The notes under the pieces are model-generated. The model was not told the origin of the DNA and did not search any database. It saw only the letters and a list, made by a program, of their open reading frames with translations. DNA of 31,763 nucleotides from Patescibacteria group bacterium (lineage in GTDB: Bacteria > Patescibacteriota > Patescibacteriia > Magasanikbacterales > GWA2-37-8), in NCBI GenBank assembly GCA_004321885.1, contig SCQK01000015.1:1-31763 (forward strand), in the 5' to 3' direction. The stretch's first letter is position 1. Every line of letters starts with the position of its first letter. The translations under genes and the position numbers were made by a program. Below are positions 2 to 21,171 of this stretch, one piece after another.

Positions 2-1600
2 ACCGAGGGCGGTAGCTGTGTCCAGCCCGGAAACCTGTGTCTGACAGGCCTTTCGTGCCTGTCCGGGTTCTGTGTGAAGCTCCCGCCCACCACCACGGAT
101 GGCGGGATCAAGATCGACGGCCCCAAGCCCGAGGCAGGAAAGACCCCCGGCACCGAGGGAGGCCTGTGCGTTCAGCCAGGCAATCTGTGCCTGTCGGGGC
201 TCAATTGCCTCTCGGGGTTCTGCGTGAAGCTCCCGGCCACGGCGGACAGCGGAGTCAAGACCGACACCGCCAAGACACCGGGGAGTGAGGGTGGGGCATG
301 TGTGAATGGCAATCAGTGCCTGTCTGGGCTGATCTGCCTGTCGCAGATCTGCGTCAAGGCGCCGTCCACGTGCAACACCGACGTGGATTGCAACGACAAC
401 AACGAGTGCACTGCTGACACGTGTGTGAACTTCGGCGGGACGTTCGGCAAGTTGTGTGTGACGTTCCCCGGAGACCCCTCGTGCCGACCATGCACCACGG
501 ACGCGGATTGCGGCGACAGCAACCCCGTCACGACCGACAAGTGCGTCGTCGCGAGCGGGAAGACCATGGGCAAGTGTCAGTACACGGCTTCCGGCGTGAC
601 GAAGTGCACGCCGGGCAACTCGCCCGTGGAGTGCGGCGACGGTATCGCCTGCACCACCGACAACTGCAATCAGGACGGGTCCTGCTCGCACACGTTTGGC
701 GCCAACTGCCCGTGCGCGAAGGACTCGGACTGTAATGATAAGAACTCTTGCACCAGCGACACCTGCAACACGGGGACCGGCAAGTGCGTCTTCACGCCTG
801 CCACGGGGTGCAAGGAGTGCATGAAGCTGGAGGACTGCGGCGGGGCTCTCTCCCGCGTGACTTCGCCCATTAGTTCGTCTGGCGCGGATTGCGCCGCGAA
901 CTCCTGCGTGAAGAACGTTGGGGACGTGGTGGGCAAGTGCGCCACCACGTTGCAGCCGGCGTGTGTGCCCTGCAACAGCCCCACCAACTGGCCCGCGTGT
1001 TCGTACTGGTCCTCGTGTTGGGTTTGCGACCCGACCGGAACCGGCAAGTACGAATGCGGGCCGGACCCAAAGGTGGCCGGGTGCCCGACTGGCCTGCCCT
1101 GGCCCCCGCCTGCCCAGCCCCCGACCCCGTTGTGCTCGTCCAATGCGGACTGCAAGGACTACGCGGGCGGCACGTGCGCGACTGGCGGGTTCTGCGTCTA
1201 CACGCTCGGCGGAGGCAACTCCGTCATCAGCGTGAAGGTGCCGGCCGCCGGCAAGGTGCACCTGTGGGTTGCCAACAAGGAGCTCACGGGTGTCGGGAGC
1301 GCGGGCACGATTCTCAACTTCCAGGTCTCAAGCGCAGACCTTTGCGCCTGGGGCTTTGATGTAAATATTGAAGACGGGTCCAACAAGTGGTGGGGTTGCG
1401 ACCTGCCCAGCCAGTCGAAGTCGAGCACCGACCTTCGGCTGGGTGGCGTGGGGAGCAACTCAAACCTCCTCTGCGTCGGCACGGCAGCCGCTTGCGGACC
1501 AAGCAAGTGCTACCTGTTGACCAGCGACCCGACCGCGTGTGGCGGCAAGGGCGGCGAGGGCAATATCAAGTGCCCCAAGACCGCTCTCGGCTGCCCGTAG
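2..1600 (+). CDS. 5'-truncated, secreted cysteine-rich repeat protein. The reading frame is open from the window edge, so the ATG at 74 is internal. About 150-nt near-identical tandem repeats lie at roughly 2-370, followed by several 'C-x-x-D-x-D-C-x-D-x-N-x-C-T-x-D-x-C' modules resembling Myxococcales-type Cys-rich (disulfide) repeats.
   Basis: The frame is continuous from nt 2 (TEGGSCVQPGNLCLTGLSCLSGFCVKLP...), and the same about 50-aa unit recurs three times at the DNA level. The sequence is very Cys-rich with regularly spaced Cys and Asp. GC is visibly much higher (about 60-65%) than in the rest of the window. The stop is at 1598-1600. Confidence 0.7.
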   Translation, partial: TEGGSCVQPGNLCLTGLSCLSGFCVKLPPTTTDGGIKIDGPKPEAGKTPGTEGGLCVQPGNLCLSGLNCLSGFCVKLPATADSGVKTDTAKTPGSEGGACVNGNQCLSGLICLSQICVKAPSTCNTDVDCNDNNECTADTCVNFGGTFGKLCVTFPGDPSCRPCTTDADCGDSNPVTTDKCVVASGKTMGKCQYTASGVTKCTPGNSPVECGDGIACTTDNCNQDGSCSHTFGANCPCAKDSDCNDKNSCTSDTCNTGTGKCVFTPATGCKECMKLEDCGGALSRVTSPISSSGADCAANSCVKNVGDVVGKCATTLQPACVPCNSPTNWPACSYWSSCWVCDPTGTGKYECGPDPKVAGCPTGLPWPPPAQPPTPLCSSNADCKDYAGGTCATGGFCVYTLGGGNSVISVKVPAAGKVHLWVANKELTGVGSAGTILNFQVSSADLCAWGFDVNIEDGSNKWWGCDLPSQSKSSTDLRLGGVGSNSNLLCVGTAAACGPSKCYLLTSDPTACGGKGGEGNIKCPKTALGCP

Positions 1601-1755: not shown

Positions 1756-1943
1756 CTCCCCCTTATAAAGGGGGAGAAAAGCGGACGGCCGATGCTTGTG
1801 GAGTGAAAATATTGGCTGACCCCCCCCTCTCCCACCCCCCCTTAAAGTCCCCCTCGGGCAGGGGGACATAAAGAGGAAGTCGGCCGACAAAAAAACCACC
1901 TAACGCATACCCCCTCTTCTGTTCTCCCCCTAAAATGGGGAGA
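1756..1943. repeat. Three GC-rich 'CCCCC-(T/A-rich loop)-GGGGG' hairpin repeats (B-type elements) in the convergent intergenic region.
   Basis: Perfect 21-nt palindromes are seen at 1756-1776 (ctcccccttataaagggggag), 1847-1867 (gtccccctcgggcagggggac) and 1923-1943 (tctccccctaaaatggggaga). The same motif type recurs inside genes elsewhere in the window. Confidence 0.75.
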
Positions 1944-1980
1944 CAAGACGGGGCGTGTTCTCTCTCGGGTGGTTTTTTTG
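1888..1980. terminator. Bidirectional terminator-like inverted repeat between convergent genes.
   Basis: A 13-bp perfect inverted repeat (caaaaaaaccacc / ggtggtttttttg) lies at 1888-1900 and 1968-1980 and encloses one B-type hairpin. The A-run on one side and the T-run on the other would supply U-tracts for transcripts from either direction. Confidence 0.4.
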
Positions 1981-1982
1981 TT

Positions 1983-2342
1983 TTAAGCGGCCGGTTGTAA
2001 GCGCAAGTGCTCTTCTATTCTTTTGATTCGTTGTTCAAGCTTGTCAAAATCGCCGGATATAACACGAATGTCATCCTTGGCCATTTTAGCAATTTTTTGC
2101 ATTTCTGTTTTTAAATAGTCGAGGTCAGCTTTTATGTTACGTAGTTCTTCCTTGATTGCAGCAACATCAAGCGTCAATTCGTTAAAATCTTTTTTTGTAA
2201 CAAGTGTAGCGATTGAATCGTCAAATTCTTTTTTTGCGACCAATCCGCCGATTTTATCATTGAATTCCGTTTTAGTAACAGCGTTATCTTTTATAAAAGA
2301 TACTATTTCTAAAATATCGTCTAATTTTTTTTCGTTTTCCAT
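1983..2342 (-). CDS. Hypothetical coiled-coil protein with internal 'TKxEF...LV.KK.F' repeats.
   Basis: The 119-aa ORF is low-GC and Lys/Glu/Asp-rich with a heptad-like repeat pattern. It lies immediately downstream, on the same strand, of the small zinc-ribbon ORF. No family was recognised. Confidence 0.4.
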   Translation of the reverse strand: MENEKKLDDILEIVSFIKDNAVTKTEFNDKIGGLVAKKEFDDSIATLVTKKDFNELTLDVAAIKEELRNIKADLDYLKTEMQKIAKMAKDDIRVISGDFDKLEQRIKRIEEHLRLQPAA

Positions 2343-2352
2343 ACCCTTTTTG

Positions 2353-2541
2353 TTATTTAAGTAATGCGGCGATTTTCGTAATAATTTTTTTTCCGCACGT
2401 TTCGCAAAGATTAAAAGTATTCCACCAGTTATCTAAACCATTAACTTTAAGACCGCGGGCGTTGATTTCAACGCGAGACCAGTGACCACTGTTTTGTGAA
2501 TTTTGTTTTTTATTACACTTGTCGCAGATTGTGATAGTGGA
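2353..2541 (-). CDS. Small zinc-ribbon protein (C-x2-C ... C-x2-C). The start is taken at the internal Met; the ORF could extend to 2649.
   Basis: The translation is MSTITICDKCNKKQNSQ...NLCETCGKKIITKIAALLK. Two CxxC pairs are spaced about 34 aa apart. It sits 10 nt upstream of the coiled-coil ORF on the same strand. Confidence 0.3.
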   Translation of the reverse strand, partial: STITICDKCNKKQNSQNSGHWSRVEINARGLKVNGLDNWWNTFNLCETCGKKIITKIAALLK

Positions 2542-2631
2542 CATGCGATTGTTTTTTAATGAGTTGAGTGCACCACTTATTATATTGCTCTCTTTTATTG
2601 TTGTCAAATTTGGGGTATAATAGGGGGCGTT

Positions 2632-4053
2632 ATGAGCCAAACCACACAATCACGGGCGTATTATGGGGGGATTGCTTTATTTTTTTTGGCGGTCCTGATT
2701 TTCGCCCTGCCTTCGCAGATTTTTTTTCAAGCCGGCGTTTTGGGTATCATTATTTTTCTCGTCGTTATTTTTCTTTTCAATCTGCGGCTCGGTTTGTACG
2801 CCCTGGCCGCCACTTCTTTTTTTTATGGCTGGGAAGTTGTGCTGGCAAAATATTCTTGGGCCAAAAATATCGCTTATTTGTCTTCTGTTAACGCGCCTAT
2901 GGTGGATATTATCGCATTGGCGCTTTTGTTCGCGGTGGGCGTGGTCCTGGCGACCAGGCGATGGATTCAGGGTCAAGTCCGGAATGACAGATGGCTTAGG
3001 GCGTTAAAAATTCCGGCGATTCTTTACGCGATTTTTCTCGTTTCGGCGGCAGTTTCCGCATATTTCTTCGCCTACGATCACAATATAAATTCCAGCTTAA
3101 AATATTTGGCGCGACCAATGTTTTTTGCTTTCGTCGCGTTTTCGTTTTTGCCTGTTATTTTAATAGACAGTGAAAAAAAATTACTGACGGTTTTAAAAAT
3201 TTGGTTTTGCGTGGGAACGCTGACTGCGATTTTTGGCCTTGCATCGCTCGTCGTCGCGCCCCAGCAGGAATGGTTTCGCGTTACTCCGTTTAGTATCGGC
3301 GGTTTCGCGCCGCTGGGATACAATCACAATCTTATCGCCGAGGTGCTGGTGGCCATTATACCGCTGGGAATTTACTTGGCGGCGCGCGCGCGCCAGCAAG
3401 GCGCTCGGTGCAATTTTTTTGTGTACGCGATTGGAGTTTTGTTAATGCTTTTGGCCGAGTTTTTAACTTTGTCCCGCGCCGGTTGGGTGGCAATTTTCAG
3501 CCAGATAGCAATGACGCTGTTTTTGTTTCGTGGATATCTGCCAGTTTATGTGAGAGAAATTAAAGGCGAAATATTGGCCGCCGGTGTATTGGCGGTTGTC
3601 TTTATCACGCTGTATATGGGCGCATTTCTCACATCTTCAATTGTTTCCAATTCCAATTCTTCGCGCGTTTTTTCCACGAAGATTGTTTTGTTTTACGCGG
3701 CTCGCTCCCCGCTGTTTGGCTATGGACCGGGCATGTATATCAGGGTGCTGGGCGATACCTGGGATTGGTTTTCCGAGTACGGCGACCCCTTGGAAGCGCA
3801 TGGTTTTATGCAGAAAATTTTGCTGGAAGAAGGCCTGGTCGGCCTGACGCTGTTTTTGATTTTTGTATCTTATCTAATTTATTTTCTTTGGAAGCGGGCG
3901 GCGCGAACGCGCGATTTAATGCTTACCGCGACGGTGATTTCAGTTTTTGGAGCGATTATTTTTCAGGTGTTTAATACCTCGTACTTTAACAGCGTGATGT
4001 GGATGCCTATAGGGGTGGCGCTGGCGGCGACGGGGTTGAAGGGAAAGGATTGA
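2632..4053 (+). CDS. O-antigen ligase / Wzy_C-family polytopic membrane protein.
   Basis: The 473-aa protein is very hydrophobic with many predicted TM helices and carries a 'LTLSRAGWVAIF' Wzy_C-like motif in a central loop. It is followed by glycosyltransferase and radical SAM genes. Confidence 0.55.
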   Translation: MSQTTQSRAYYGGIALFFLAVLIFALPSQIFFQAGVLGIIIFLVVIFLFNLRLGLYALAATSFFYGWEVVLAKYSWAKNIAYLSSVNAPMVDIIALALLFAVGVVLATRRWIQGQVRNDRWLRALKIPAILYAIFLVSAAVSAYFFAYDHNINSSLKYLARPMFFAFVAFSFLPVILIDSEKKLLTVLKIWFCVGTLTAIFGLASLVVAPQQEWFRVTPFSIGGFAPLGYNHNLIAEVLVAIIPLGIYLAARARQQGARCNFFVYAIGVLLMLLAEFLTLSRAGWVAIFSQIAMTLFLFRGYLPVYVREIKGEILAAGVLAVVFITLYMGAFLTSSIVSNSNSSRVFSTKIVLFYAARSPLFGYGPGMYIRVLGDTWDWFSEYGDPLEAHGFMQKILLEEGLVGLTLFLIFVSYLIYFLWKRAARTRDLMLTATVISVFGAIIFQVFNTSYFNSVMWMPIGVALAATGLKGKD

Positions 4054-4054
4054 T

Positions 4055-5110
4055 ATGCGAATTTGCCATATTATTCCCAAATTGAGTTACGGCGGGGCCG
4101 AGCGGATGCTGGTGGATTTGATAAATAATTCCTCGCCAAATTTTGAACATTCGGTGATTGTTTTTTTTGATTACAATCCATTGGCCGCGGATTTGAAAGA
4201 GGGAACGTGTGTTGTTGTCGTGCCAAAAAAAGGCAAGTTGAGTTTGGGATTGGTTACCGATATTCGCGACGCGCTGAACGGCTTGAAGCCGGATATCGTG
4301 CACACGCATTTATTTGGCGGCGATTTGTGGGGCCGTTTGGCAGCCAAGCGGCTGGGCTTGCCGGTTGTTACAACCGAACACAATATCAATGTCAGCGAGG
4401 GTTGGTTGAAAAATGAATTACGGCATTGGTTGCGAAAAAAAAGTGATGCCTACGTTTCCTGCTCGGATTTTGTGCGCGGGTACATGGAGAAAAGATGCCA
4501 AATTAAAGGTGCGACAGTAATTAAAAATGGAATTGAATTGGAGCGATTTGTGCATGTTGAACAGAGAAGAATTGATCGCCCGATACAGCTTCTTGTTTTA
4601 GGTCGGCTCACGAAACAAAAAGGCCACGCCGTGGCTCTGCGAGCGCTGGCGAAATTGAAAAATATTGAGTGGCGTTTGAGTGTTTTGGGTGAGGGAGAGT
4701 TGGCAAGCGGTCTGCGAACAGAAGCGCGAGAGTTGGGAATAGGGGATAGGGTGGAATTTTTGCCGGCCACGCGCGAAATTTCCGGGGCGCTGGCGCAACA
4801 CGATATTTTGCTGATGCCGTCTTTGTGGGAAGGGCTGGGCGTGGCCGCGATGGAAGCCATGGCGGCCGGGCGGCTGGTGGTGGCATCAAGGGTGGGCGGG
4901 TTGCCGGAGTTAATTAAAGATGGGGAAACTGGATTATTGGCGCGACCAGGCGACGTGAACGACTGGGTTGAGAAATTGCGCTGGTGTTTTACGCATCCGG
5001 ATGATTGCGAACGTCTTGCCGCATCCGGTCGGGAGTACGCGCGAATGAATTTTGGCGTTGATAAAATGGTGAGAGAATATGAAAAAGTTTATCTGTCGCT
5101 TGCCAATTGA
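4055..5110 (+). CDS. Glycosyltransferase family 4 (GT-B fold).
   Basis: The N-terminus 'MRICHIIPKLSYGGAERMLVDL' is typical of GT4. An E-x7-E motif (EGLGVAAMEAMAAGRLVVASRVGGLPELI) is present. The gene starts 2 nt after the preceding stop. Confidence 0.8.
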   Translation: MRICHIIPKLSYGGAERMLVDLINNSSPNFEHSVIVFFDYNPLAADLKEGTCVVVVPKKGKLSLGLVTDIRDALNGLKPDIVHTHLFGGDLWGRLAAKRLGLPVVTTEHNINVSEGWLKNELRHWLRKKSDAYVSCSDFVRGYMEKRCQIKGATVIKNGIELERFVHVEQRRIDRPIQLLVLGRLTKQKGHAVALRALAKLKNIEWRLSVLGEGELASGLRTEARELGIGDRVEFLPATREISGALAQHDILLMPSLWEGLGVAAMEAMAAGRLVVASRVGGLPELIKDGETGLLARPGDVNDWVEKLRWCFTHPDDCERLAASGREYARMNFGVDKMVREYEKVYLSLAN

Positions 5111-6104
5111 CTGCGTGCTGGCGGTTACGTACAACTGCAACGCGCGGTGCGTGATGTGCGATATTTGGAAAATCAAAAATTTTTCCGAGCTGGCGCCTGA
5201 GCAATTTTTGAAACTGCCCGCCAGCTTGCGCGATGTGAATATCTCCGGCGGCGAGCCGTTTTTGCGGCGCGACTTGCCCCAGATAATTCACAATGTAAAA
5301 AAAGCGTGCCCGGCCGCGCGGCTCGTGATTTCCACAAACGGCTTCGCGACTGGTTTGATTCTGGCGCAGATGCGAAAAATTTTTGAAATAAAACCCAATA
5401 TCGGCATTGCGATTTCCATAGACGGAATAGGGGAGAAGCACGACGAGATGCGCGGCATACGGGGCGGGTTTAATATGGCCATGAAAACCCTTGAAGGGCT
5501 AAAGAGAATGGGCATGAAAAATTTGCGGCTGGGTTTTACGGTGACAGAGAGAAATATCAACGAGTTGGGGCGCGTGTATAATTTGGCGCGCAAAGAAGGC
5601 GTGGAGTTCACCAACAGCTTTGCCCAGAGTTCGGATATTTATTTTGGGGGGAAACAGAATACGGATTTTAAGGATATGGATTCCGGCTCGGGGGCCGGAA
5701 TGACAAAAGAGGTCCTACGCGCGCAATACCGACATCTTATCAGGGCCGAGCTTTCCGGTTGGAATATAAAGCGCTGGGCGCGCGCCTACTACGCGCATGG
5801 GATGTACAATTTTATCACCGGCAAGCAGGCCGAGCTTTCCAGCGCGCCCGGGCGCGACTTTTTCTTTTTGGACCCGTCGGGCGAAATTTATCCCTCGGTG
5901 GTGCATAATTTTAGGATGGGGAATATTCGGGCGGTTCAGGGGTTTGAACAATTTTGGTGTTCAAGCGCCAGCGAGGGTGTGCGGGAAAAAATAGACGCGG
6001 CCAAACTGCCGGTTTGGATGATATGCACCGCGCGCACAGCCATAAAAAAGCACCCCTTCAAAGTGGGGTGGTGGGTTTTGAAAAATAAATTCAGCGTCCG
6101 GTAA
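5079..6104 (+). CDS. Radical SAM domain protein.
   Basis: A CxxxCxxC cluster (CNARCVMCDIW) lies near the N-terminus, and a 'NISGGEPFLRRDL' SAM/Gly-rich motif is present. The 5' end overlaps the glycosyltransferase gene, suggesting an operon. Confidence 0.7.
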   Translation: MKKFICRLPIDCVLAVTYNCNARCVMCDIWKIKNFSELAPEQFLKLPASLRDVNISGGEPFLRRDLPQIIHNVKKACPAARLVISTNGFATGLILAQMRKIFEIKPNIGIAISIDGIGEKHDEMRGIRGGFNMAMKTLEGLKRMGMKNLRLGFTVTERNINELGRVYNLARKEGVEFTNSFAQSSDIYFGGKQNTDFKDMDSGSGAGMTKEVLRAQYRHLIRAELSGWNIKRWARAYYAHGMYNFITGKQAELSSAPGRDFFFLDPSGEIYPSVVHNFRMGNIRAVQGFEQFWCSSASEGVREKIDAAKLPVWMICTARTAIKKHPFKVGWWVLKNKFSVR

Positions 6105-7043: not shown

Positions 7044-7208
7044 ATGAAACTAATTTGTCCGGAGTGCAAAAACGACGTGGATTTGACGGCCTATCCCAAT
7101 ATGGCCGCGGGCAATGTCATAGAGTGCAATGTTTGCGGGATTACCCTCATGGTGAAAGACATGGACGGGGAAAATGTTATTGTTGAGGTGGTTGACGAGG
7201 GGAAATAA
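7044..7208 (+). CDS. Small LysW-like zinc-ribbon protein (54 aa). It is shorter than the 60-aa cut-off and so absent from the ORF track.
   Basis: The translation is MKLICPECKNDVDLTAYPNMAAGNVIECNVCGITLMVKDMDGENVIVEVVDEGK. The CPEC...(17)...ECNVCG spacing and the 'L-V-D' acidic C-terminal half resemble the LysW/ArgW amino-group carrier fold. The canonical EDWGE C-terminal tail is absent, as the protein ends in -DEGK. Confidence 0.4.
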   Translation: MKLICPECKNDVDLTAYPNMAAGNVIECNVCGITLMVKDMDGENVIVEVVDEGK

Positions 7209-8727
7209 GCCTGTCAATCATTCCCCTAAACCCACGCGAGCCCAAAAAGACGATGGTGTCTTCTTTTTGGGCTGTCTTTTTTAAATAAGCGACCAGTGCG
7301 TCGTCGTCCGGCATGAATTTCGCGTTGTTGTGCGTTTTGGAAATAATTTTGGCCAGTTTGGCGCCATTCATAAGCTCGTTGGTTGTCTCCCCCTTGATAA
7401 GGGGGAGATTCACTACCACACCAAAATTTTTGGTGTGGTAGTGAAGAGGGGGTAATTTTAATTTCGTAAGCGCGGGAACAATTACTTCGTTGGCATTGGC
7501 AAAAGCGTGAGCGTACGATGGGGCCGAGGCCGCGCTCCGGCCGCCGGTATTGGGTTCAAATACCGCGTAGATTTTTCCCTTATAAATTTGGCGCAAAGTG
7601 GCGAGGGTTGACTTGGCTTTGGCCGGCGAGTGGGCGATGTCGTCGTAGACATCGGCGCCGCTTGCTTGTCCGCGTTTTTCCAGCCGCCGCTTCAAGCCGT
7701 CAAAAGTTTTAATAGCTGAGAGAATTTTTTCCGGCGCGATGCCGATTGCCGAGGCCAGCGCGAACACCCCGCACAAATTTTGCGCCATAAATTCGCCGAG
7801 CATGGGCGAGGAAACTTTATAAATTTTTTTCCCGTGTCGCAGTTCAAATTTTATGCCGCTGCCGCTCTGGCTAATTTTACCGTATTGGTAGTCGCATCGT
7901 TCAGCTTTGCCATACGTTATTGTCATTGCGAGGCCGTTTGCGGCCGAAGCAATCCCATACGTATTATTAGTAGGAGATTGTTTCGCTGCGCTCGCAATGA
8001 CACTTAAAACCTTCTCATCATCAGCGCACGCCACTATTAGTCCATGTTTTGGTATGGAAGCGATCAAATTTTCAAACGCGTCAAAATAGCTTTCTGCGGT
8101 GGGATAAATATCAGCGTGGTCCCAGCTGATGGAAGCGAGGAGCAGGTGAGTGGGGGAGTAGTGGGAAAATTTTGGTCGCGCATCCCAGCGGGCTGATTTG
8201 TACTCGTCGCCTTCTATCACGCTCCACCCCTCTTTTTTTCCGCTGGCTCCATAGTCCCCCGCAGGGGGCTGTGGAGCCAAACTGCCCATACTCGCCGATT
8301 CAAACCCGCTTATCGCCAGACCGCCGAACATGTAACTCGGCGCGAAATTGGCTTGCGTCAAAATCCACGAGAGCAAAGCCGCGATTGTCGTCTTGCCGCA
8401 GGTGCCGGCGCAGACGATGGAGTTTTGTTTCACGAAATATTCAGCCAATACCTCGGGATATGATTTGTATCTCAATTTTTTTTCCTGCGCCGCCAGCCAT
8501 TCAGGGTTTTGCGAACCGGCCACATTACCCACCACCACTAAATCCGGAGAGTCCATGCGCTCCGGATGCCAGCCCGGGTAAAATGCCACACCCGCAGATT
8601 TCAACCTCGTGGAAACCGGCGGGAAAAAGCCAACGTCACTGCCAGTCACTTTCCATCCGGCTTTCTTAAAAGCAACAGCAATCCCGCTCATTCCCACCCC
8701 GCAAATTCCGATAAAGTGAACATGCAT
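7177..8727 (-). CDS. Mur ligase of the MurC/Mpl family (UDP-N-acetylmuramate:L-alanine ligase or murein peptide ligase). It carries an in-frame GC-rich palindromic insert.
   Basis: The N-terminus 'HFIGICGVGMSGIAVAFKKAGWKVTGSD...YPPVST' is MurC/Mpl-like, with the YPPxST pattern resembling Mpl. Mur ligase middle and C-terminal domains follow. Nucleotides 7386-7456 encode 'KLPPLHYHTKNFGVVVNLPLIKGE' from a palindromic element. Confidence 0.8.
   Translation of the reverse strand: MHVHFIGICGVGMSGIAVAFKKAGWKVTGSDVGFFPPVSTRLKSAGVAFYPGWHPERMDSPDLVVVGNVAGSQNPEWLAAQEKKLRYKSYPEVLAEYFVKQNSIVCAGTCGKTTIAALLSWILTQANFAPSYMFGGLAISGFESASMGSLAPQPPAGDYGASGKKEGWSVIEGDEYKSARWDARPKFSHYSPTHLLLASISWDHADIYPTAESYFDAFENLIASIPKHGLIVACADDEKVLSVIASAAKQSPTNNTYGIASAANGLAMTITYGKAERCDYQYGKISQSGSGIKFELRHGKKIYKVSSPMLGEFMAQNLCGVFALASAIGIAPEKILSAIKTFDGLKRRLEKRGQASGADVYDDIAHSPAKAKSTLATLRQIYKGKIYAVFEPNTGGRSAASAPSYAHAFANANEVIVPALTKLKLPPLHYHTKNFGVVVNLPLIKGETTNELMNGAKLAKIISKTHNNAKFMPDDDALVAYLKKTAQKEDTIVFLGSRGFRGMIDRLISPRQPPQQ
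7920..8000. repeat. A 12-bp perfect inverted repeat 'tgtcattgcgag / ctcgcaatgaca' with a 57-nt spacer inside the Mur-ligase gene. The 'gtcattgcga(g)' half-site recurs at about 13332 and 28598.
   Basis: The arms are at 7920-7931 and 7989-8000, and the spacer contains the small hairpin ggccgtttgcggcc. The same 10-11-mer is seen in the intergenic region at 13332-13343 and at the annotated start of the 28597 ORF. Confidence 0.5.
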
Positions 8728-8745: not shown

Positions 8746-9498
8746 CTATTGTTTTAGTATCTTCTTTAGCTCCTCCAAATTCCTCTTCCACTCCTTCCCG
8801 TCAAACCATTCCAGTCCATTAAACTGTAATTTATAGACATCGGCCGGGCGCTGGGCCGAGCCGATATACACGTATTTTTTTCCCTCCACCTTCGCGTGCA
8901 AAATCGCTTTTTGCATCATGCCCAGGCCCAGGTCTTTTTGTTTGGATTCAAGGTCGTAAAAAGGATAGCTGTAATGCAAGATATTTTTTGTTTCAAAACA
9001 AATGCAGTAGCCCAATACCCCCTCCCCCGTCCTCCCCCTAAGAGGGAGAGGACTACCAGCGGTATTTCCTTCCCCTTTTAGGGGAGGGGCAGGCCACCAC
9101 ACCAAAGATTTTGGTGTGGTGGCAGGGGGTGGGGTATAAATCAATAACAAATTAAAGTTGCTTTTTGCCGGGTCAGTCAGCATCTCTTTTATTTTTTGTG
9201 CGGAGAAAATTTTCGGTCCAAATTTTTTTTCGTAAAAATCCTTGCCCATCTTGTGCACGCGCCAGTCATAATCAGAGTAGGGGAGAGGGGCCGCGTCCAG
9301 TTCAAAATTTTTCGTATGGCTCAAAATGCGCCGGTTCTCGCTGTTTAGAATAAATTTGCCCAAATCAATGCGCACACTGCGCGTTTGATTCATATCGCCT
9401 TTGCCCGTGCGCGTAAAAACAAAACCCTCACTGTAAAGTTTTTCTACATTTTCATCCGCGAAATCAGAAATTGTTTTCTTGTTCCAAGATAGATACAT
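8746..9498 (-). CDS. ATE/Bpt-family (arginyl-/leucyl-tRNA-protein transferase-like, ATE_C domain) aminoacyl transferase. It carries a large in-frame palindromic-element insert.
   Basis: An 'GFVFTRTGKG...MNQTRSVRIDLGKF' segment resembles the ATE 'GWRRSG...QT..IR...F' region. The C-terminus 'YSYPFYDLESKQKDLGLGMMQKAILHAKVEGKKYVYIGSAQ' matches the ATE_C pattern Y-x-FYD-[PL]...SLG...I..AK..G..Y.Y[IL]G. Nucleotides 9010-9135 encode a Pro/Gly-rich 'TPPPATTPKSLVWWPAPPLKGEGNTAGSPLPLRGRTGEG' stretch. Confidence 0.55.
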   Translation of the reverse strand: MYLSWNKKTISDFADENVEKLYSEGFVFTRTGKGDMNQTRSVRIDLGKFILNSENRRILSHTKNFELDAAPLPYSDYDWRVHKMGKDFYEKKFGPKIFSAQKIKEMLTDPAKSNFNLLLIYTPPPATTPKSLVWWPAPPLKGEGNTAGSPLPLRGRTGEGVLGYCICFETKNILHYSYPFYDLESKQKDLGLGMMQKAILHAKVEGKKYVYIGSAQRPADVYKLQFNGLEWFDGKEWKRNLEELKKILKQ

Positions 9499-13423: not shown

Positions 13424-14023
13424 ATGAAAAACGAAATAAAAGAAATAGAAAAAGACTTAGAATTTGTAAAAAATATTTATATAAAACTTCTAACGATATT
13501 GCCCAGTTTTAATATTACTGATAGCAAAATTTTGCCTTATGGCTTAAAAGCGCACACTAGATCGGTAAGTTGGTTAGTTGAGCAAGTTATTACACAGCAA
13601 ACTAAATTCAATGCAAAGAAACTTGATTTAGATGAAGTTAATTTTGACTTCCCAGATACCTCACTACATGATTGCGAAATTATTTATAAAGGGAGAAGTT
13701 ATTTTATAAATGTTAAAATTCACAATATTGGAAGCAAAGAAAATAAAAATGATATTTCTGCGGTAGAAAAACTTTATTTTCAATACAGTGTTAATAAAAA
13801 TTATACCTTAATATATGCTTGCTTTGGCATTAAATTTGAAAATATAAAAATAAATTTTGTTAAAGATTATTTAGAAGTTTTCTCGCCACAGTTTCTACCA
13901 ATTTATGTGAATCCTCGAAATGACAAAATTCAAGCCACCTATAGACATGATAAAGTATACAGAACGCGAGATGAATTTCTAAAAATGTTAAAAGAAAAAT
14001 CAAAAAGTATTATTTTAAAATAG
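13424..14023 (+). CDS. Putative type II restriction endonuclease, the R subunit of an AT-rich R-M islet.
   Basis: The 199-aa ORF has extremely low GC (about 20%). It lies 2 nt upstream of, and is co-oriented with, a beta-class DNA methyltransferase. No recognisable family motif was found, which is typical for REases. The assignment is by context. Confidence 0.45.
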   Translation: MKNEIKEIEKDLEFVKNIYIKLLTILPSFNITDSKILPYGLKAHTRSVSWLVEQVITQQTKFNAKKLDLDEVNFDFPDTSLHDCEIIYKGRSYFINVKIHNIGSKENKNDISAVEKLYFQYSVNKNYTLIYACFGIKFENIKINFVKDYLEVFSPQFLPIYVNPRNDKIQATYRHDKVYRTRDEFLKMLKEKSKSIILK

Positions 14024-14025
14024 CT

Positions 14026-14847
14026 ATGAATAAAATTTTTAACGAAGATATTTTATTAGGAATAGATAAAATAGAAGACAATTCTATTGATTTAATTTTA
14101 ACTGATCCTCCTTATTGTTTAGGCAAAGATTATGGCAATGATTCTGATCAAAAATCATCTGAGGATTATCTGAACTGGACATATCAATGGATTGATGCGG
14201 TTTTGCCTAAATTAAAAAATAGTGGAAGTTTTTATATTTTTTTAAGCTGGCAATATTCACCAGAAATTTTTTGTTATTTAAAAAAGAAATTACGAATGGT
14301 CAATGAAATTATTTGGGATAGACGAGTGCCAAGCATGGGCGGTTCTACTAGAAAATTTTCATCTGTCCACGACAATATAGGTTTTTTTGTAAAAAATAAT
14401 AATTATTATTTTGATTTAGATAGCATTAGAATTCCCTACGATGAAGAAACTAAAAAAGCAAGAACTCGATCAATTTTTGTTGGAAAAAAATGGTTAGAAA
14501 TGGGCTACAATCCAAAAGATTTATGGAGTACACCAAGAATACACACACAAGACCCTGAAAGAGAAAATCACCCAACCCAAAAACCTTTAGAAATAATTGA
14601 ACGAATGGTAAAAGCAAGTTGTCCTAAAAACGGAATTGTTTTTGATCCATTCATGGGAACCGGAACAACTGCTATCGCTTGCCTATCAAGCAATAGGCAA
14701 TATGTAGGATTTGAAATAAATAAAGATTATCACAAACTAATAACAAATCGAATCAAGAAACATAATAGTTGCCCGACTTTATTTCAACAACAGAAGCAAA
14801 AACAAGGTAATTTGACTCAAGGCATTCACCTATGCACGATAAATTGA
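14026..14847 (+). CDS. DNA methyltransferase, beta-class amino-MTase (N4-cytosine or N6-adenine), type II R-M system M subunit.
   Basis: An N-terminal 'DLILTDPPYCLG' (motif IV, DPPY) precedes a C-terminal 'HPTQKPLEIIERMV...VFDPFMGTGTTAIA' (motif I/SAM binding), giving the circularly permuted beta-class order. The composition is AT-rich. Confidence 0.85.
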   Translation: MNKIFNEDILLGIDKIEDNSIDLILTDPPYCLGKDYGNDSDQKSSEDYLNWTYQWIDAVLPKLKNSGSFYIFLSWQYSPEIFCYLKKKLRMVNEIIWDRRVPSMGGSTRKFSSVHDNIGFFVKNNNYYFDLDSIRIPYDEETKKARTRSIFVGKKWLEMGYNPKDLWSTPRIHTQDPERENHPTQKPLEIIERMVKASCPKNGIVFDPFMGTGTTAIACLSSNRQYVGFEINKDYHKLITNRIKKHNSCPTLFQQQKQKQGNLTQGIHLCTIN

Positions 14848-16231: not shown

Positions 16232-18573
16232 AAGAGCAGGCAATAAAATTGATTAGGCGTTTTTGGCCGGCTGGCTATGGCTTGGTCGGCTCTTTTATTA
16301 TTTCCGCCGGCTGGAACTGGTATCACACCGCCCATCGTCCCCACTGGCGCATTATTCTCATCACGCTCGGCGTTTGGGTGGTTGTTTACGCAGGTTTTCG
16401 CGGATTCAAATGGCTTTATGCGTACTTTACGCGGCGCTTCCGCAGGCACGAGTTTTGGCAAAAGAATTTTTACGTTGTTTTAGACCAGCTTTATTTTATT
16501 TTCTCGCTTATTTTTTTGGTTTTTTTCTCGCGCGACGAAATCGTCTCGGCCCTCTACGCGCCCGTGATTTTTTTAATCTTTTATTGGCGCCTTGACCGGT
16601 ACCTCAAAAAGCACCCCGATGGCGGAATGTGGCGCCGCGTCGCGCGCGCGTTTTTTTTGTTCGGCTTTTTTATTTTTCTATTGATGGATGTTTTGCAATA
16701 TTTTGCTTTTCGTTTGTATATACTGGACCCAAACGCCAAAATTTTTAACATTGTTTTTTTCCGCGCTTGGGCCATGGCCATATTTTGGCTGGCTACATTT
16801 GCCGTCTGCGCCATCTGGTATCGCTTCACGCGCAAATGGCATCGCTACGCGCCACTCGGTTTTTGGGCGCTTTGCTTTGTCGTCTATGCCGCGCTGTGGG
16901 CGCTAAATGTAGGCGTGCTCTACTACTCGGGCTTGTACTTAAATCCGGCGCTTTTGGAACACGCCGAGGGCGGCGCCGGCGCCGGTTATCTTTCCACCGG
17001 CGTCAGCTATTTACTTTTCGCGTTATTGGCAGTAATGCTGGGTCTTTTCACTGTGCTATTTAAAAAAATCATGAAAGCGCACGGAAATTCGGCTACGCGC
17101 CACTGGAATTATTACCATTTCGCCCTCATTGCTTTGGCGCTGTTTACTTTTTTGGCCGTGGCCAGCTTCAAAACCACTCCCGAATATCTTATCATCCGTT
17201 CTTTTTATAAATACTTCCGCGGCGAAACCGAAAAAATAGAATTGAACCAGGCGGTCAAGACAAAATTAGAGCGATTTGGTCTGAAATACAACACGGACCA
17301 GTTCTACGTCGCGCACAAGGATACGGTTTATCGCTCAAATCCTCCACTCCTCGCCCCAAAATTCTCTACCAAAAAACCCAACCTCGTCATCGTTTTCCTG
17401 GAGTCCTTTTCCAGTCGCCTCACCGGCGTTTATAATCCCAAATACAAAGAGCTTACCCCGGGCCTCAACAAAATGGCCGCGGACAAAAATACCACTGTTT
17501 TCAAAAACTACTACAATGCCAGCACTCCGTCCATCACTGGCATTATTTCTTTGCTTTGCTCGTACCTCACGCCATTCGGCCACAATGAAATTCAAAACGA
17601 AAACCGCTTGCAAAGAACTGGCCTGATGTGCCTGCCGCGCGCCCTGAAAAAAAACGGCTACAAGGATTTTTTGTATATGACCGCGGTGAGCGAGGAATTC
17701 GCCAACAAGGGCTCCATTGCCAAAAGCATGGGCATAGAAAAAATGCTGGGCCAGGAAGAGCTGAAAAAATACATCAAAGCTCCGCCCCTGGCCTGGGGCT
17801 ACAGCGACCACCAGATGTTTCCGTTGTTTTTTGATTTGATGCCAAAACAGCGCGAACCGTTTTTGATGATGCTGGCCACAGTGGACACGCACCCGCCGTT
17901 TACCACGGCCAAGGATATTTTGAAATATAAAAGCGGGGGCAGCAACATGCTCAACACTTTTCACACCACCGACGACGGCTTCTCCAAATTTTGGGACCAG
18001 TTCAAGGCCAGCCCGTATTACGAGAATACAATTTTGATTGCCGTGGCCGACCACGCGGTTTTTCCGGTGGCCTACGACAAAAAGGGTTTTCCCGACGAGT
18101 ATGGCAAGCGCACTTTTTACGACGAAAATTTGTTCCTGCTCTACGCGCCTGAAAATGTTCTGCCCAAAGAGGTCAAGACGCTTTCGTCGGGGATTGATTT
18201 CACGCCAACGATTTTGCAAATGCTTGGGATAAACAAGGTGCCAAACGCGTTTGAAGGACATTCTATTTTTGACGACCGCGCCAAATTTCCAAACATCCTC
18301 GGCATGCACGAGTTCGGGCTGTATATAAACCAGGCGATTTCTCAAAATCCTACCCCTATTAGGGGGAGGGCGGGCCACCACACCAAAGAATTTGGTGTGG
18401 TGGCAGGGGAGGGGGTTGAACGTCGCACCGACTACGCGGTCCCATCGCATCTGGAATGCGCCGACGCCGAGGTCGGCGCTTCATCCAGCACCCCGCTCAC
18501 CCTTTGCGAATTTTTGCATTTCTACAAATGGAAACGCCAGATGATGGAAGAGGGCCGGTTTTGGGAGAAGTAA
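16228..18573 (+). CDS. LtaS/MdoB-like sulfatase-domain (alkaline-phosphatase superfamily) membrane protein. The N-terminal multi-TM is followed by an extracytoplasmic phosphotransferase domain, with an in-frame GC-rich insert near the C-terminus.
   Basis: About 300 aa of hydrophobic helices precede 'PNLVIVFLESFSS...NASTPSITGIISLLCSY...ATVDTHPPF', which is sulfatase/LtaS-like. Nucleotides 18353-18480 (B and A palindromes plus the gcgccgacgccgaggtcggcgc hairpin) encode 'PTPIRGRAGHHTKEFGVVAGEGVERRTDYAVPSHLECADAEVGASS'. Confidence 0.6.
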   Translation: MKEQAIKLIRRFWPAGYGLVGSFIISAGWNWYHTAHRPHWRIILITLGVWVVVYAGFRGFKWLYAYFTRRFRRHEFWQKNFYVVLDQLYFIFSLIFLVFFSRDEIVSALYAPVIFLIFYWRLDRYLKKHPDGGMWRRVARAFFLFGFFIFLLMDVLQYFAFRLYILDPNAKIFNIVFFRAWAMAIFWLATFAVCAIWYRFTRKWHRYAPLGFWALCFVVYAALWALNVGVLYYSGLYLNPALLEHAEGGAGAGYLSTGVSYLLFALLAVMLGLFTVLFKKIMKAHGNSATRHWNYYHFALIALALFTFLAVASFKTTPEYLIIRSFYKYFRGETEKIELNQAVKTKLERFGLKYNTDQFYVAHKDTVYRSNPPLLAPKFSTKKPNLVIVFLESFSSRLTGVYNPKYKELTPGLNKMAADKNTTVFKNYYNASTPSITGIISLLCSYLTPFGHNEIQNENRLQRTGLMCLPRALKKNGYKDFLYMTAVSEEFANKGSIAKSMGIEKMLGQEELKKYIKAPPLAWGYSDHQMFPLFFDLMPKQREPFLMMLATVDTHPPFTTAKDILKYKSGGSNMLNTFHTTDDGFSKFWDQFKASPYYENTILIAVADHAVFPVAYDKKGFPDEYGKRTFYDENLFLLYAPENVLPKEVKTLSSGIDFTPTILQMLGINKVPNAFEGHSIFDDRAKFPNILGMHEFGLYINQAISQNPTPIRGRAGHHTKEFGVVAGEGVERRTDYAVPSHLECADAEVGASSSTPLTLCEFLHFYKWKRQMMEEGRFWEK

Positions 18574-20337: not shown

Positions 20338-21171
20338 TTGTCGGGTATGTCAAAAATTTTGGAAAATATTAAGCAGCGACCATATTTTTCGAAGAACAAT
20401 TTTGTCCTGTACAGGGACAACTGTTTAAATATTCTGGGAAAATTACCAGAGAATTCGGTTGACATGATTTTTGCAGATCCTCCTTATTTGCTTTCGAACG
20501 GCGGAATGACGTGCAATGGGGGGAAAATGGTAAGCGTTGATAAAGGGCAGTGGGATGTGAGTAACGGTTTAAAAAAGGACTGGGAATTTCATTTGAGCTG
20601 GATTAAAGCGTGTCATCGAGTATTAAAGCCATGCGGAACAATTTGGATAAGTGGGACCTATCACTCCATTTATCAATGCGGATTCGCTTTGCAGGTCAAC
20701 AAATTTCATATTTTGAATGATATTGCCTGGTTCAAACCGAATGCGTCTCCAAATTTGAGTTGTCGATTTTTTACTGCTAGCCACGAAACGATTATTTGGG
20801 CTCGGAAAGATAAAAAAGGAAAACACAAATTTAATTATGAGCTAATGAAAAACAGAGACTGGACGGGTGATTTTATAAAAAAACCGAATCTTCAAATGCG
20901 AAGTGTTTGGGCTATTTATCCTCCCAAAAAAGAAGAAAAGATTTTTGGTAAGCACCCCACTCAAAAACCGATAGATTTATTGGTTAGGATTATCCTCGCA
21001 AGCACAGATAAGGGCGACATTGTTTTGGACCCATTTACCGGCTCTTCAACTTCAGGGCTGGCGGCATTTTTGAATGAAAGAAAATTCGTTGGTATTGATT
21101 TGGAAAAAAAATATCTAGATATATCCATTAAACGTTTCAGCAGTTTTAAAAAAGAAGCCCCTCATTTATGA
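20338..21171 (+). CDS. Orphan beta-class DNA amino-methyltransferase (N6-adenine or N4-cytosine).
   Basis: An 'DMIFADPPYLL' (DPPY) motif is N-terminal, and 'HPTQKPIDLLVRIILAST..GDIVLDPFTGSSTSG' is C-terminal. The islet is low-GC (about one-third). No intact REase ORF is adjacent. Confidence 0.85.
   Translation: MSGMSKILENIKQRPYFSKNNFVLYRDNCLNILGKLPENSVDMIFADPPYLLSNGGMTCNGGKMVSVDKGQWDVSNGLKKDWEFHLSWIKACHRVLKPCGTIWISGTYHSIYQCGFALQVNKFHILNDIAWFKPNASPNLSCRFFTASHETIIWARKDKKGKHKFNYELMKNRDWTGDFIKKPNLQMRSVWAIYPPKKEEKIFGKHPTQKPIDLLVRIILASTDKGDIVLDPFTGSSTSGLAAFLNERKFVGIDLEKKYLDISIKRFSSFKKEAPHL

Follow-up and report, generated by a model that had tools for sequence, protein, structure and literature searches.

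A probably native, cysteine-rich gene of high GC content in a variable slot upstream of the Wzy_C operon of Magasanikbacteria-type bacteria

Features of the locus

The window, that is, the whole 31,763-nt stretch of DNA that was analysed, is a complete contig of a Patescibacteria group bacterium MAG and begins with a gene encoding a Cys-rich protein. The features at this end of the window are as follows.

2–1600, + strand: CDS of a putative Cys-rich surface protein, 5′-truncated (532 codons plus the stop codon at 1598–1600)
2–151, + strand: repeat unit 1, consisting of a knot with four Cys (G-x-C-x6-C-x5-C-x4-C) and a linker rich in T, P and K
152–283, + strand: repeat unit 2, core 75% nt-identical to unit 1
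284–370, + strand: repeat unit 3, the knot alone, more diverged (codon-aligned core nt identity 61–68%)
371–1129, + strand: stalk of CTDC-like disulfide modules, from the translation, Cys positions and Dicty_CTDC score
1130–1597, + strand: conserved C-terminal domain, from alignment, leave-one-out HMM and BLASTP
1683–1731, + strand: candidate terminator, 15-bp stem and T-run, from sequence and fold
1739–1982, no strand assigned: GC-rich hairpin array, copies at 1739–1777, 1848–1866 and 1907–1945
1983–2342, − strand: small coiled-coil-like ORF (GC 0.34), converging on the Cys-rich gene
2632–4053, + strand: Wzy_C (O-antigen-ligase-like) membrane protein (Pfam, 3.8e-10)
4055–5110, + strand: GT4 glycosyltransferase, operon partner downstream, in the same order in L012 and L013
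5079–6104, + strand: radical SAM gene, operon partner downstream, in the same order in L012 and L013

Positions 2–1600 form a single ORF that is open from base 2, and its 532-aa product contains 58 Cys residues (10.9%). The GenBank annotation (EPN28_04600) covers only the last 380 aa of this ORF, and an exact-sequence look-up of the 532-aa product returned no record. The GC content of the ORF was 0.649 and its GC3 was 0.84, compared with 0.52–0.66 in core genes. The GC content of bases 1–1500 was 0.636–0.660, while that of the genes downstream in the window was 0.34–0.57, in agreement with the preliminary description of this DNA, which had noted a compositional outlier of about 60–65% GC. The codon-usage and tetranucleotide comparisons proposed there gave the same picture. 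A GC of 0.571 and a GC3 of 0.627 were predicted from the amino-acid sequence and background codon usage; the observed GC3 was 11 sd above this prediction (z=11), and the high GC3 is only partly due to amino-acid content. Lys was encoded by AAG at 32 of 32 positions, against 23% in the background. The GC-normalised tetranucleotide signature was compared between each of 19 chunks and the remaining window: 1–1600 gave the smallest correlation, r=0.07, and the other chunks gave 0.29–0.61.

Repeat units and stalk modules

The three tandem repeat units described previously were present at the 5′ end, but their DNA was not nearly identical. The repeat-unit cores (63–89 nt) were 75–78% identical in ungapped comparison and 61–75% identical when codon-aligned, and Tandem Repeats Finder reported no array for this region. 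Units 1 and 2 had 25 of 29 residues in common and used different synonymous codons at 13 of these 25. Because DNA identity is only 61–78%, the units appear to be old, and their sequences point to a duplication under protein-level constraint with no recent expansion. The recent expansion or contraction that had been suggested was not borne out, the synonymous sites being heavily diverged between units.

In the stalk, two perfect C-x2-D-x-D-C-x-D-x-N-x-C-T-x-D-x-C modules were found at nt 371–424 and 713–766, with degenerate modules of the same pattern at 491–544 and 605–667, followed by additional Cys-rich and Pro-rich segments up to 1129. The Cys spacing of the Dicty_CTDC family (C-x5-C-x5-C-x4-C with a D/N/T pattern) was exact at residues 124–141 and 238–255 and degenerate at residues 164–181 and 202–222. 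The likeness of the window protein to Dicty_CTDC, TIGR02232 and TIGR04201 proteins lies in these modules with conserved D, N and T. For membership in Dicty_CTDC (PF00526), the whole protein had to reach the gathering cut-off of 27 bits in the HMM search. The window protein scored 25.5 bits (E=1.1e-5) in two stretches, the best at residues 243–266, and differs from Dicty_CTDC proteins in being sub-threshold and in having mostly degenerate modules. The cut-off was passed by relatives from the same locus, namely L013, L004a and L006a, with 164.7, 90.5 and 66.3 bits, respectively.

A resemblance to TIGR02232 had also been proposed, but no NCBIfam family matched the window protein at E<=10, hence neither TIGR02232 nor TIGR04201, and Dicty_CTDC was the closest curated model. 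TIGR02232 was found in none of eight relatives (NCBIfam, E<=0.01). The 22-residue repeat HMM TIGR04201 (Myxo_Cys_RPT) matched L002b and L004b with 19–23.5 bits, under its threshold of 25 bits. The description of the product as a Cys-rich repeat protein of exported type was upheld, with export supported through relatives only, as the N-terminus of the window protein is beyond the contig edge.

C-terminal domain

The protein ends in LGCP-stop, and a domain with the motif LCxWG ... W[WYF]GC ... GGGEGN ... LGC-P-end lies at its extreme C-terminus. The domain is common to six loci (window, L006a, P0011 from L009, P0012 from L011, L012a and L013), and C72, W87, G89, G144, N145, G154 and C155 are invariant in its alignment. 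An HMM built without the window sequence found the window domain with E=1.1e-17 (61 bits) and had no other match among 1,317 ORFs, and BLASTP of the window domain against L006a gave 8e-8. The domain-bearing genes of the window, L006, L009, L011, L012 and L013 all lie upstream of a Wzy_C orthologue on the same strand. No relative of the domain was found in Pfam, NCBIfam or PDB sequences. When the C-terminal 156 aa (residues 377–532) were searched with HMMER against 1.84e9 representatives, the matches were the query itself, P0011 and two dubious repeat proteins only, and a profile search of a set of 5.8e9 returned only P0012. From these single-sequence or shallow-profile searches, the domain appears to be a new family, and this slot is its only location known so far.

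A beta-sandwich fold is predicted for the domain. The structure model, built from a three-sequence alignment, was of medium confidence (pLDDT 65) and gave generic beta-sandwich matches only; a model of all 532 aa made by AlphaFold from the single sequence was unusable (pLDDT 36). The matches were to Ig-like (BIg/FN3/PKD) adhesin domains, such as those of MpIBP (5irb/4p99) and SiiE (2yn3), and to CBM-type beta-sandwiches, and are generic matches of a medium-confidence model at 6–17% identity. The Cys-rich tail CGGxGEGN...LGCP has no counterpart in these folds.

The 3′ flank and the downstream operon

The stem at 1683–1731, in which a C-C mismatch separates an 8-bp from a 6-bp helix, could plausibly terminate transcription of the Cys-rich gene; a terminator scan reported none by its criteria, this stem included. 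The hairpin array contains a perfect 14-nt inverted repeat (1887–1900/1968–1981), and folding of 1598–1990 gave z=-7.9. The window 3′ flank has a GC content of 0.55 because of this array. Hairpins of the type CTCCCCC-loop-GGGGGAG occur near the gene at 1757, 1848 and 1924 and elsewhere in the window at 7388, 11573, 23187 and 23668, and the exact pattern had 5 matches in the window versus 0 expected, which confirmed that the hairpins just downstream of the gene recur across the window. Rfam gave nothing over the whole window. Homology of the small ORF at 1983–2342 to positions 9207–9881 of L012 was considered and rejected (E=0.53).

Wzy_C is conserved and marks the right-hand border of the variable slot described below, and its orthologues carry the name Candidatus Magasanikbacteria. 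NCBIfam assigned no family to the Wzy_C protein. The order Wzy_C–GT4–rSAM–PALP–Mur ligase–GT family 4 (Glycos_transf_4) in the window is that of L012, L014 and L015. On the left, the slot of L014 and L015 is bordered by dnaB-ybaB-recR.

A conserved slot upstream of Wzy_C

Fourteen loci were informative, that is, Magasanikbacteria-type loci from independent assemblies with an orthologous Wzy_C–GT4 operon, the window included. The operon was preceded on the same strand by high-GC genes for exported proteins in 12 of these, with the slot (up to 5 kb upstream of Wzy_C) occupied in the window, L002, L004, L006, L009/L010, L011, L012, L013, L014, L015, L017 and L018; L007 and L016 lacked such genes. 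Each slot held one to six genes, and the products are exported, mostly lipobox-bearing and often Cys-rich. Of the 13 slot genes that are Cys-rich or adjacent to Wzy_C, 11 encode a lipobox, and the count over all genes examined in these high-GC islands is 11 of 17; by inspection, the N-termini of the remaining two of the 13 and of several more island genes resemble a lipobox or a type I signal. No close relative of the window locus was found, and the Wzy_C proteins of the relatives are only 35–50% identical to that of the window.

The slot genes exceeded their neighbours in GC content by 0.10–0.30. The GC3 of islands and neighbours in eight comparisons was 0.84/0.57, 0.73/0.55, 0.95/0.39, 0.61/0.22, 0.85/0.46, 0.88/0.44, 0.96/0.58 and 0.76/0.44. 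Slot genes that are not Cys-rich, including those for lipoproteins of 154–199 aa, were equally GC-rich. The same C-terminal domain was found in only 6 of 12 islands, and therefore the content of the slot turns over, which requires gene flow of some form. The side-by-side paralogues L002a and L002b are 38% identical. Slot genes are under-represented in databases because gene callers miss or misorient them: the L013 orthologue was skipped by JGI, and ENA-derived calls in L017 were on the wrong strand.

High GC content is confined to the coding sequences

The GC contents of island CDS and island spacers were 0.60/0.36, 0.69/0.39, 0.53/0.36 and 0.65/0.45. In a meta-profile of 26 genes, GC was 0.39–0.45 upstream of the start codons and 0.64–0.67 inside the genes, stayed at 0.63–0.64 up to the stop codon and was 0.40 by +100 nt. 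All three codon positions were GC-shifted, and in the window gene the region of the C-terminal domain was as GC-rich as the remainder. Across slots, GC3 ranged from 0.6 to 0.96 in genomes with a GC3 of 0.2–0.6, with Lys encoded almost only by AAG. Because the island spacers keep the GC content of the host, the high GC is a conserved CDS-specific trait and neither the fading signature of a recent import nor the result of a misjoin. Literature searches returned no report of this phenomenon.

Origin of the gene and of its composition

The Cys-rich ORF is a real gene, and we assign it to a tiny groundwater bacterium of the CPR (Magasanikbacteria type). We consider it likely that it is a native gene for a disulfide-rich surface protein, placed in a variable slot upstream of an envelope-glycan operon and having a conserved, CDS-specific GC content. 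Its odd composition is no evidence of recent transfer or misassembly, because distant relatives have equally GC-rich genes at the same spot. We infer that the GC content is upheld by selection on both amino-acid choice and synonymous sites (e.g., AAG for every Lys). Tentatively, it is possible that Magasanikbacteria have a dedicated slot in which exported lipoprotein genes are kept at extreme, CDS-confined GC through selection on the coding sequence itself, as a codon or mRNA regime specific to a gene class. Export and oxidative folding, the survival of transcripts, or a role of the products as dedicated glycosylation substrates of the adjacent Wzy_C enzyme might underlie such a regime. High expression as the cause of the high GC3 was disfavoured, as rplT and infC beside the L018 island have a GC3 of 0.39–0.41.

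We consider it unlikely that recombination drove the GC content, with the slot as a hypervariable surface-antigen locus in which sequence is frequently exchanged or converted between strains and between paralogues, acting through gBGC or repeated replacement from a lineage-wide pool. The loci indeed differ in gene number, N-terminal architectures and C-terminal domains, paralogue pairs adjoin (L002a/b), the GC shift affects all three codon positions, and in four assemblies the contig ends a short distance before Wzy_C, a pattern expected where strains vary; the Cys-rich proteins of Peribacteria have been reported to differ between strains (PMC4736985). However, conversion tracts or regional bias should ignore start and stop codons, while the observed plateau tracks the CDS and the spacers are at host GC. 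The intragenic repeats are strongly diverged at synonymous sites, so they have not been homogenised.

The equally high GC content of the endemic C-terminal domain and of the non-Cys-rich slot genes, together with spacers at host GC, argues against a mosaic import, in which Cys-rich, TSP3, EGF-like and disintegrin-like modules came, possibly repeatedly, from high-GC neighbours or hosts (Myxococcota-like) and were then fused to the endemic domain. This origin is improbable, even though the domain content is eukaryote- or myxobacteria-like, other bacteria, such as Candidatus Binatia, have the CTDC-repeat proteins that match the repeat region most closely in databases, and island proteins gave sub-threshold matches to the Myxococcus TraA, TraB, MtsC and TIGR04201 models. 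The best outside identity was only 33–41% over ~30% of the query, and the window protein is Lys-rich and Arg-poor (K:R 32:3), against a K/(K+R) of 0.10–0.38 in the CTDC proteins of other bacteria.

Conserved slot, domain homology and a GC plateau ending at the CDS boundaries disfavour both a recent transfer and a chimera. That this genome recently received the gene by horizontal transfer from a donor of high GC, as put forward in the preliminary description, is very improbable. In GC, GC3, codon usage and tetranucleotide signature, no other part of the window departs as far from the remainder as this gene, but high-GC genes with the same flank occur in 12 of 14 loci, so that the anomaly recurs in place at 11 further loci, with Wzy_C proteins of just 35–50% identity. 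The presence at these loci and the host-GC spacers (0.36–0.45 versus 0.53–0.69 in CDS) both speak against a recent island, and GC falls at the stop codon. No donor-like homologue and no phage relatives were found, and the genes called at the loci retrieved included no integrase, transposase or other mobility gene, the upstream side of the window being beyond the contig edge. Gene flow into the slot may be ancient or lineage-internal.

The junction of the high-GC gene with the low-GC genes appears genuine, as had been supposed, from the same adjacency in independent JGI, ENA and NCBI assemblies and the fall of GC at the stop codon. Only one independent assembly exists for this strain, Logan SRR8426592 (L001); it matches the window at 100% identity from 1836 on and ends there in a poly-C tract, short of the Cys-rich gene. 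Literature searches turned up no paper that cites SRR8426592. An assembly chimera, in which a fragment of a high-GC organism was joined to a CPR contig, is hardly credible: the gene does lie at a contig edge, the Logan contig does stop within the hairpin/poly-C region and repeats are classic misjoin sites, but a copy of the hairpin family (1739–1777) is on the gene side of that break, spacers between island genes are at host GC, by the leave-one-out HMM the gene belongs to a family whose members, in independent assemblies, all lie beside Wzy_C orthologues, and conserved synteny would not arise from a chance join.

Proposed function and comparison with known systems

If the gene is native, positions 2–1600 would represent its 3′ two-thirds or more, directly followed by the conserved operon for envelope glycans (Wzy_C, GT4, radical SAM, GHL15). 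The protein would have a lipid-anchored N-terminus, a stalk of Cys-knot and CTDC-like modules and a C-terminal beta-sandwich “tip” domain. The lipid anchor is proposed because the relatives begin with a lipoprotein signal peptide, and the window protein would itself be a lipoprotein. The disulfide-stabilised modules would present the tip domain in adhesion or host contact. From this architecture and the structure model (pLDDT 65), the protein is probably a lineage-specific surface lipoprotein acting as an adhesin or host-contact protein.

CPR Peribacteria encode large, strain-variable extracellular Cys-rich proteins with a proposed role in attachment, weak similarity to Myxococcus repeats, signal peptides and clustered genes (Anantharaman et al. 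2016, PMC4736985). The Peribacteria genome has a GC content of 58.5%, and a compositional anomaly was not reported in that paper (PMC4736985). Both groups of proteins have a CPR host, signal peptides, a Cys content from several to >10%, weak Myxococcus similarity, clustering and strain variation; Peribacteria are a different CPR lineage, and the likeness is by description. The C-terminal domain and the position beside Wzy_C are described here only.

The vls surface-lipoprotein genes of Borrelia have a GC content far above that of the AT-rich genome and are tied to surface variation through gene conversion from silent cassettes, with strong GC skew. The genes of the slot resemble them as surface-lipoprotein genes of raised GC, but the window locus has no silent cassettes, no skew and no homogenised repeats. 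In the pilin–TfpO/PilO pairs of Pseudomonas and Acinetobacter, a gene for an exported protein is followed by a Wzy_C-family gene, and the protein is the glycosylation substrate of the enzyme. The window likewise has a Wzy_C-family gene directly downstream of a predicted exported-protein gene; the substrate type differs, and the enzyme is known from its Pfam Wzy_C domain alone.

The slot is a source of candidate adhesins for episymbiotic attachment and defines a new putative C-terminal domain family. Composition-based binning, HGT detectors and gene callers would call such genes foreign or miss them, and the GenBank truncation, the skipped L013 gene and the wrong strand in L017 illustrate how likely host-contact proteins of CPR bacteria become under-represented. 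A CDS-confined GC3 of up to 0.96 persists across deep divergence in AT-biased, reduced genomes, and amelioration after HGT, regional mutation bias and expression-linked codon bias are poor accounts of it. Selection on the coding sequence, if true, would be a new kind of compositional compartment within a reduced bacterial genome, one that binning and gene calling would systematically overlook.

A link of the slot genes to phages was considered and rejected, as IMG/VR held no relative and PHROGs gave no hit except in L004. Positions 1–1131 of L004 encode collagen-like G-x-y repeats that match PHROGs tail-fibre families.

Cysteine-Rich Gene and Encoded Protein

The window spans a whole contig of 31,763 nt; the NCBI MAG to which it belongs is labelled 'Patescibacteria group bacterium'. 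Its Cys-rich ORF was open from base 2 to the stop codon at 1598–1600, with 532 codons and 58 Cys (10.9%); GenBank protein EPN28_04600 starts internally and covers just the final 380 aa of the ORF. The ORF contained the following features:

2–151, plus strand: repeat unit 1, a four-Cys knot (G-x-C-x6-C-x5-C-x4-C) and a T/P/K-rich linker
152–283, plus strand: repeat unit 2, the same knot and a T/P/K-rich linker
284–370, plus strand: repeat unit 3, the same type of four-Cys knot
371–424 and 713–766, plus strand: exact-pattern CTDC-like modules (CTDC, the Pfam Dicty_CTDC repeat)
last 156 aa: C-terminal region with a predicted high content of beta-strands, ending ...CGGKGGEGNIKCPKTALGCP

The Cys pattern of the preliminary description was exact in those two modules, but the others in the CTDC-like stretch were degenerate. 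The repeats had been called nearly identical, but their cores shared 75–78% identity ungapped and 61–75% when codon-aligned, and TRF reported no array. Units 1 and 2 had 25 residues in common, 13 of them with different codons. This is an old duplication, with conservation at protein level.

A TIGR02232-like assignment found no support, as NCBIfam (TIGR02232 included) gave no match at E ≤ 10. The nearest family was Dicty_CTDC at 25.5 bits, just below the cut-off of 27, and Pfam DUF7107 matched weakly. Database search with the protein returned just seven others, all through the CTDC repeats, with identities of 33–41% across some 30% of the query. Its Lys:Arg ratio of 32:3 sets it apart from CTDC proteins elsewhere in bacteria.

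Composition

GC was 0.636–0.660 across bases 1–1500, compared with 0.34–0.57 in the other genes of the window, and GC3 was 0.84, compared with 0.52–0.66 in core genes. Background codon frequencies of the window would give this protein a GC of 0.571 and a GC3 of 0.627, so amino acid composition accounts for about half of the excess. Synonymous usage was 11 sd from expectation: Lys was AAG in 32 of 32 cases (23% in the background), Asp was GAC in 82% (54%), and TTA and CTA were never used. After GC normalisation, the tetranucleotide signature of 1–1600 had a correlation of r = 0.07 with the remainder of the window, the lowest among 19 chunks (others 0.29–0.61), so 'compositionally foreign' is an apt description. 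Low-GC islands were also present at 13424–14847 (GC 0.26–0.31) and 20338–21171 (GC 0.38), with GC3 of 0.20–0.38 overall. They encoded N6/N4 DNA methylases (PF01555, E = 1e-55 to 1e-58) and an unknown 199-aa ORF, and are probably restriction-modification genes. Because of these islands, the window is compositionally heterogeneous in both directions.

Slot Upstream of Wzy_C

Relatives were sought through the neighbouring Wzy_C-like gene (2632–4053), not the Cys-rich gene. GTDB genomes, JGI and ENA metagenomes and NCBI MAGs yielded Wzy_C relatives with 35–50% identity, two of them named Candidatus Magasanikbacteria. The window and its relatives had a common downstream order of Wzy_C, GT4, radical SAM, (GHL15), PALP enzyme, Mur ligase and GT family 4 (Glycos_transf_4). 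Exported-protein genes with strongly raised GC were located at most 5 kb upstream of Wzy_C, in the same orientation, in 12 of the 14 loci with enough sequence, the window included; loci L007 and L016 had none there.

Genes in the upstream slot of the relatives
L002: five; two with 10–12% Cys
L004: at least four; two Cys-rich, GC 0.67–0.68 and GC3 0.90–0.92 (neighbours 0.32–0.41)
L006: at least four; GC3 0.59–0.65 against 0.13–0.23
L009/L010: one visible
L011: at least five called, plus one more high-GC ORF (the sixth) at the edge of the locus; GC 0.61–0.70
L012: two
L013: at least three
L014: 199-aa lipoprotein; GC3 0.96
L015: 154-aa lipoprotein; GC3 0.76
L017: three; GC3 0.82–0.87
L018: one; 11.4% Cys, GC3 0.78

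In L014 and L015 the slot was bordered on the left by dnaB–ybaB–recR, so it is a variable region between core genes. Four short contigs ending less than 1 kb upstream of Wzy_C were left out of the count: L003, L005, L008 and L001, the Logan contig of the window's strain (window 1836–5183). They are independent, and L001 ends in a poly-C tract at 1836; this suggests that assemblers struggle with the slot, because of strain variation, repeats or coverage that changes with GC. L016, otherwise without an island, carried a segment of GC 0.66 (1–650; background 0.35–0.45) about 9 kb upstream of Wzy_C. L004 encoded a collagen-like (G-x-y) membrane protein (1–1131, GC 0.74) and L011 a thrombospondin-type-3-repeat protein (798–2102; TSP_3, E = 6e-14); the slot gathers such eukaryote-like extracellular matrix modules. 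The radical SAM gene (SPASM-like, all matches sub-threshold) was conserved in the Wzy_C operon (window 5079–6104, L012 12547–13551, L013 13478–14470, L018 9110–9988), and in L018 it was located between the Cys-rich gene and Wzy_C. The GTDB-representative MAG of L002 (CAYSPW010000006.1) is labelled 'uncultured Gammaproteobacteria bacterium', probably wrongly, since its locus agrees with Magasanikbacteria-type contigs in gene order and at 42% Wzy_C identity.

Shared C-Terminal Domain and Architecture

The same C-terminal domain (LCxWG ... W[WYF]GC ... GGGEGN ... LGC-end) ended proteins of six loci: the window, L006 (L006a), L009 (P0011), L011 (P0012), L012 (L012a) and L013. BLASTP of the window protein against L006a gave 8e-8. 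A leave-one-out profile of the five relatives matched the window ORF at E = 1.1e-17, its sole match in the 1,317 ORFs taken from every locus. Against 1.84 billion representatives, the 156 aa retrieved themselves, P0011 as a true relative (E = 4.7e-4) and two doubtful matches; they matched nothing in Pfam or among PDB sequences. In these single-sequence and shallow-profile searches the domain was not found beyond the slot.

The N-terminal parts varied, with CTDC repeats in the window, L006a and L013, EGF-like domains and T-D repeats in P0011, and a disintegrin-like region in P0012. PROSITE-type lipoboxes were looked for in 13 slot genes that are Cys-rich or adjacent to Wzy_C, and 11 of them begin with one (11 of 17 with four further L011 island genes); by inspection, the others had near-lipobox or ordinary signal-peptide-like N-termini. 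Given an N-terminal lipid anchor, the conserved domain would be the distal end, and the protein would form a disulfide-stabilised stalk with this domain as its tip. Going by this architecture, the protein may act in adhesion or in contact with a host. CPR Peribacteria have large extracellular Cys-rich proteins proposed to mediate attachment (PMC4736985), and the window protein is of the same broad kind. Cys-rich surface proteins could be served by the product of 29673–30485, a candidate extracytoplasmic thiol-disulfide oxidoreductase: it is membrane-anchored and thioredoxin-like, has two CxxC motifs (CKEC, CKNC) and matches Thioredoxin and PDO weakly. In pilin–TfpO pairs a Wzy_C gene lies directly downstream. 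With the same arrangement here, the slot lipoproteins might, speculatively, be glycosylation substrates.

Confinement of High GC to Coding Sequences and Origin of the Gene

Spacers in multi-gene islands dropped to host GC: CDS and spacer values were 0.60 and 0.36 (L002), 0.69 and 0.39 (L004), 0.53 and 0.36 (L006) and 0.65 and 0.45 (L011), compared with differences of just 0.02–0.13 outside islands. Across 26 island genes, GC was 0.39–0.45 before the starts, 0.64–0.67 from about codon 17 and 0.63–0.64 up to the stop, then fell to 0.54–0.50 within the following 100 nt and to 0.40 after that; control genes were flat (0.40–0.49). The drop in the window gene likewise began at its stop codon. In nine loci, AAG made up 57–100% of Lys codons in island genes and 14–39% in neighbours.

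We take the gene to be native and its product to be a surface lipoprotein specific to the lineage, because the anomaly persists confined to CDS, the domain was found only in the slot, and the protein is Lys-rich and Arg-poor. Recent horizontal transfer, proposed in the preliminary description, is disfavoured: similar high-GC genes share this flank in relatives, and a divergence that leaves Wzy_C at 35–50% identity should have brought neutral synonymous sites to equilibrium, but the CDS-confined anomaly persists in this comparison of distant relatives. An assembly chimera is very unlikely, because a random misjoin could not rebuild synteny conserved across independent assemblies and because one copy of the window's hairpin family separates the gene from the stopping point of the Logan contig.

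Three candidate causes of the CDS-confined GC can be ranked. The plateau follows start and stop codons, which puts selection on coding sequence at the top. Second is a hypervariable surface locus undergoing recombination or gene conversion; this accounts for slot turnover but leaves the host-GC spacers unexplained. The third is a mosaic import in which high-GC bacteria supplied the modules. The genes for ribosomal protein L20 and IF3 adjoining the L018 island had GC3 of 0.39–0.41, which speaks against a high-expression codon set.

Hairpins and Gene Annotation

The GC-rich hairpins noticed downstream of the gene are real, and their family was dispersed across the window (5 exact-pattern matches, 0 expected); the 393-nt 3' flank had a folding z of −7.9. 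Copies of GC-rich palindromic families also occurred inside long ORFs (7386–7454, 9015–9135, 18348–18416, 23150–23214 and 23619–23689). In the Mur ligase gene (7177–8727, minus strand), the palindromic element coincided with a 19-aa in-frame insertion, LHYHTKNFGVVVNLPLIKG, at about residues 427–445, which the 49% identical L012 orthologue lacks. Rickettsia carries in-frame palindromic elements, and this one resembles them.

High-GC genes of low-GC CPR genomes are systematically mis-annotated. GenBank begins the Cys-rich gene internally (380 of at least 532 aa; window 2–461). The JGI gene call skipped the 614-aa orthologue in L013 (7846–9690), and three high-GC genes of L017 (4320–9788) were called on the wrong strand. 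Because gene callers miss slot genes in this way, the rarity of the C-terminal domain in protein databases is in part an artefact.
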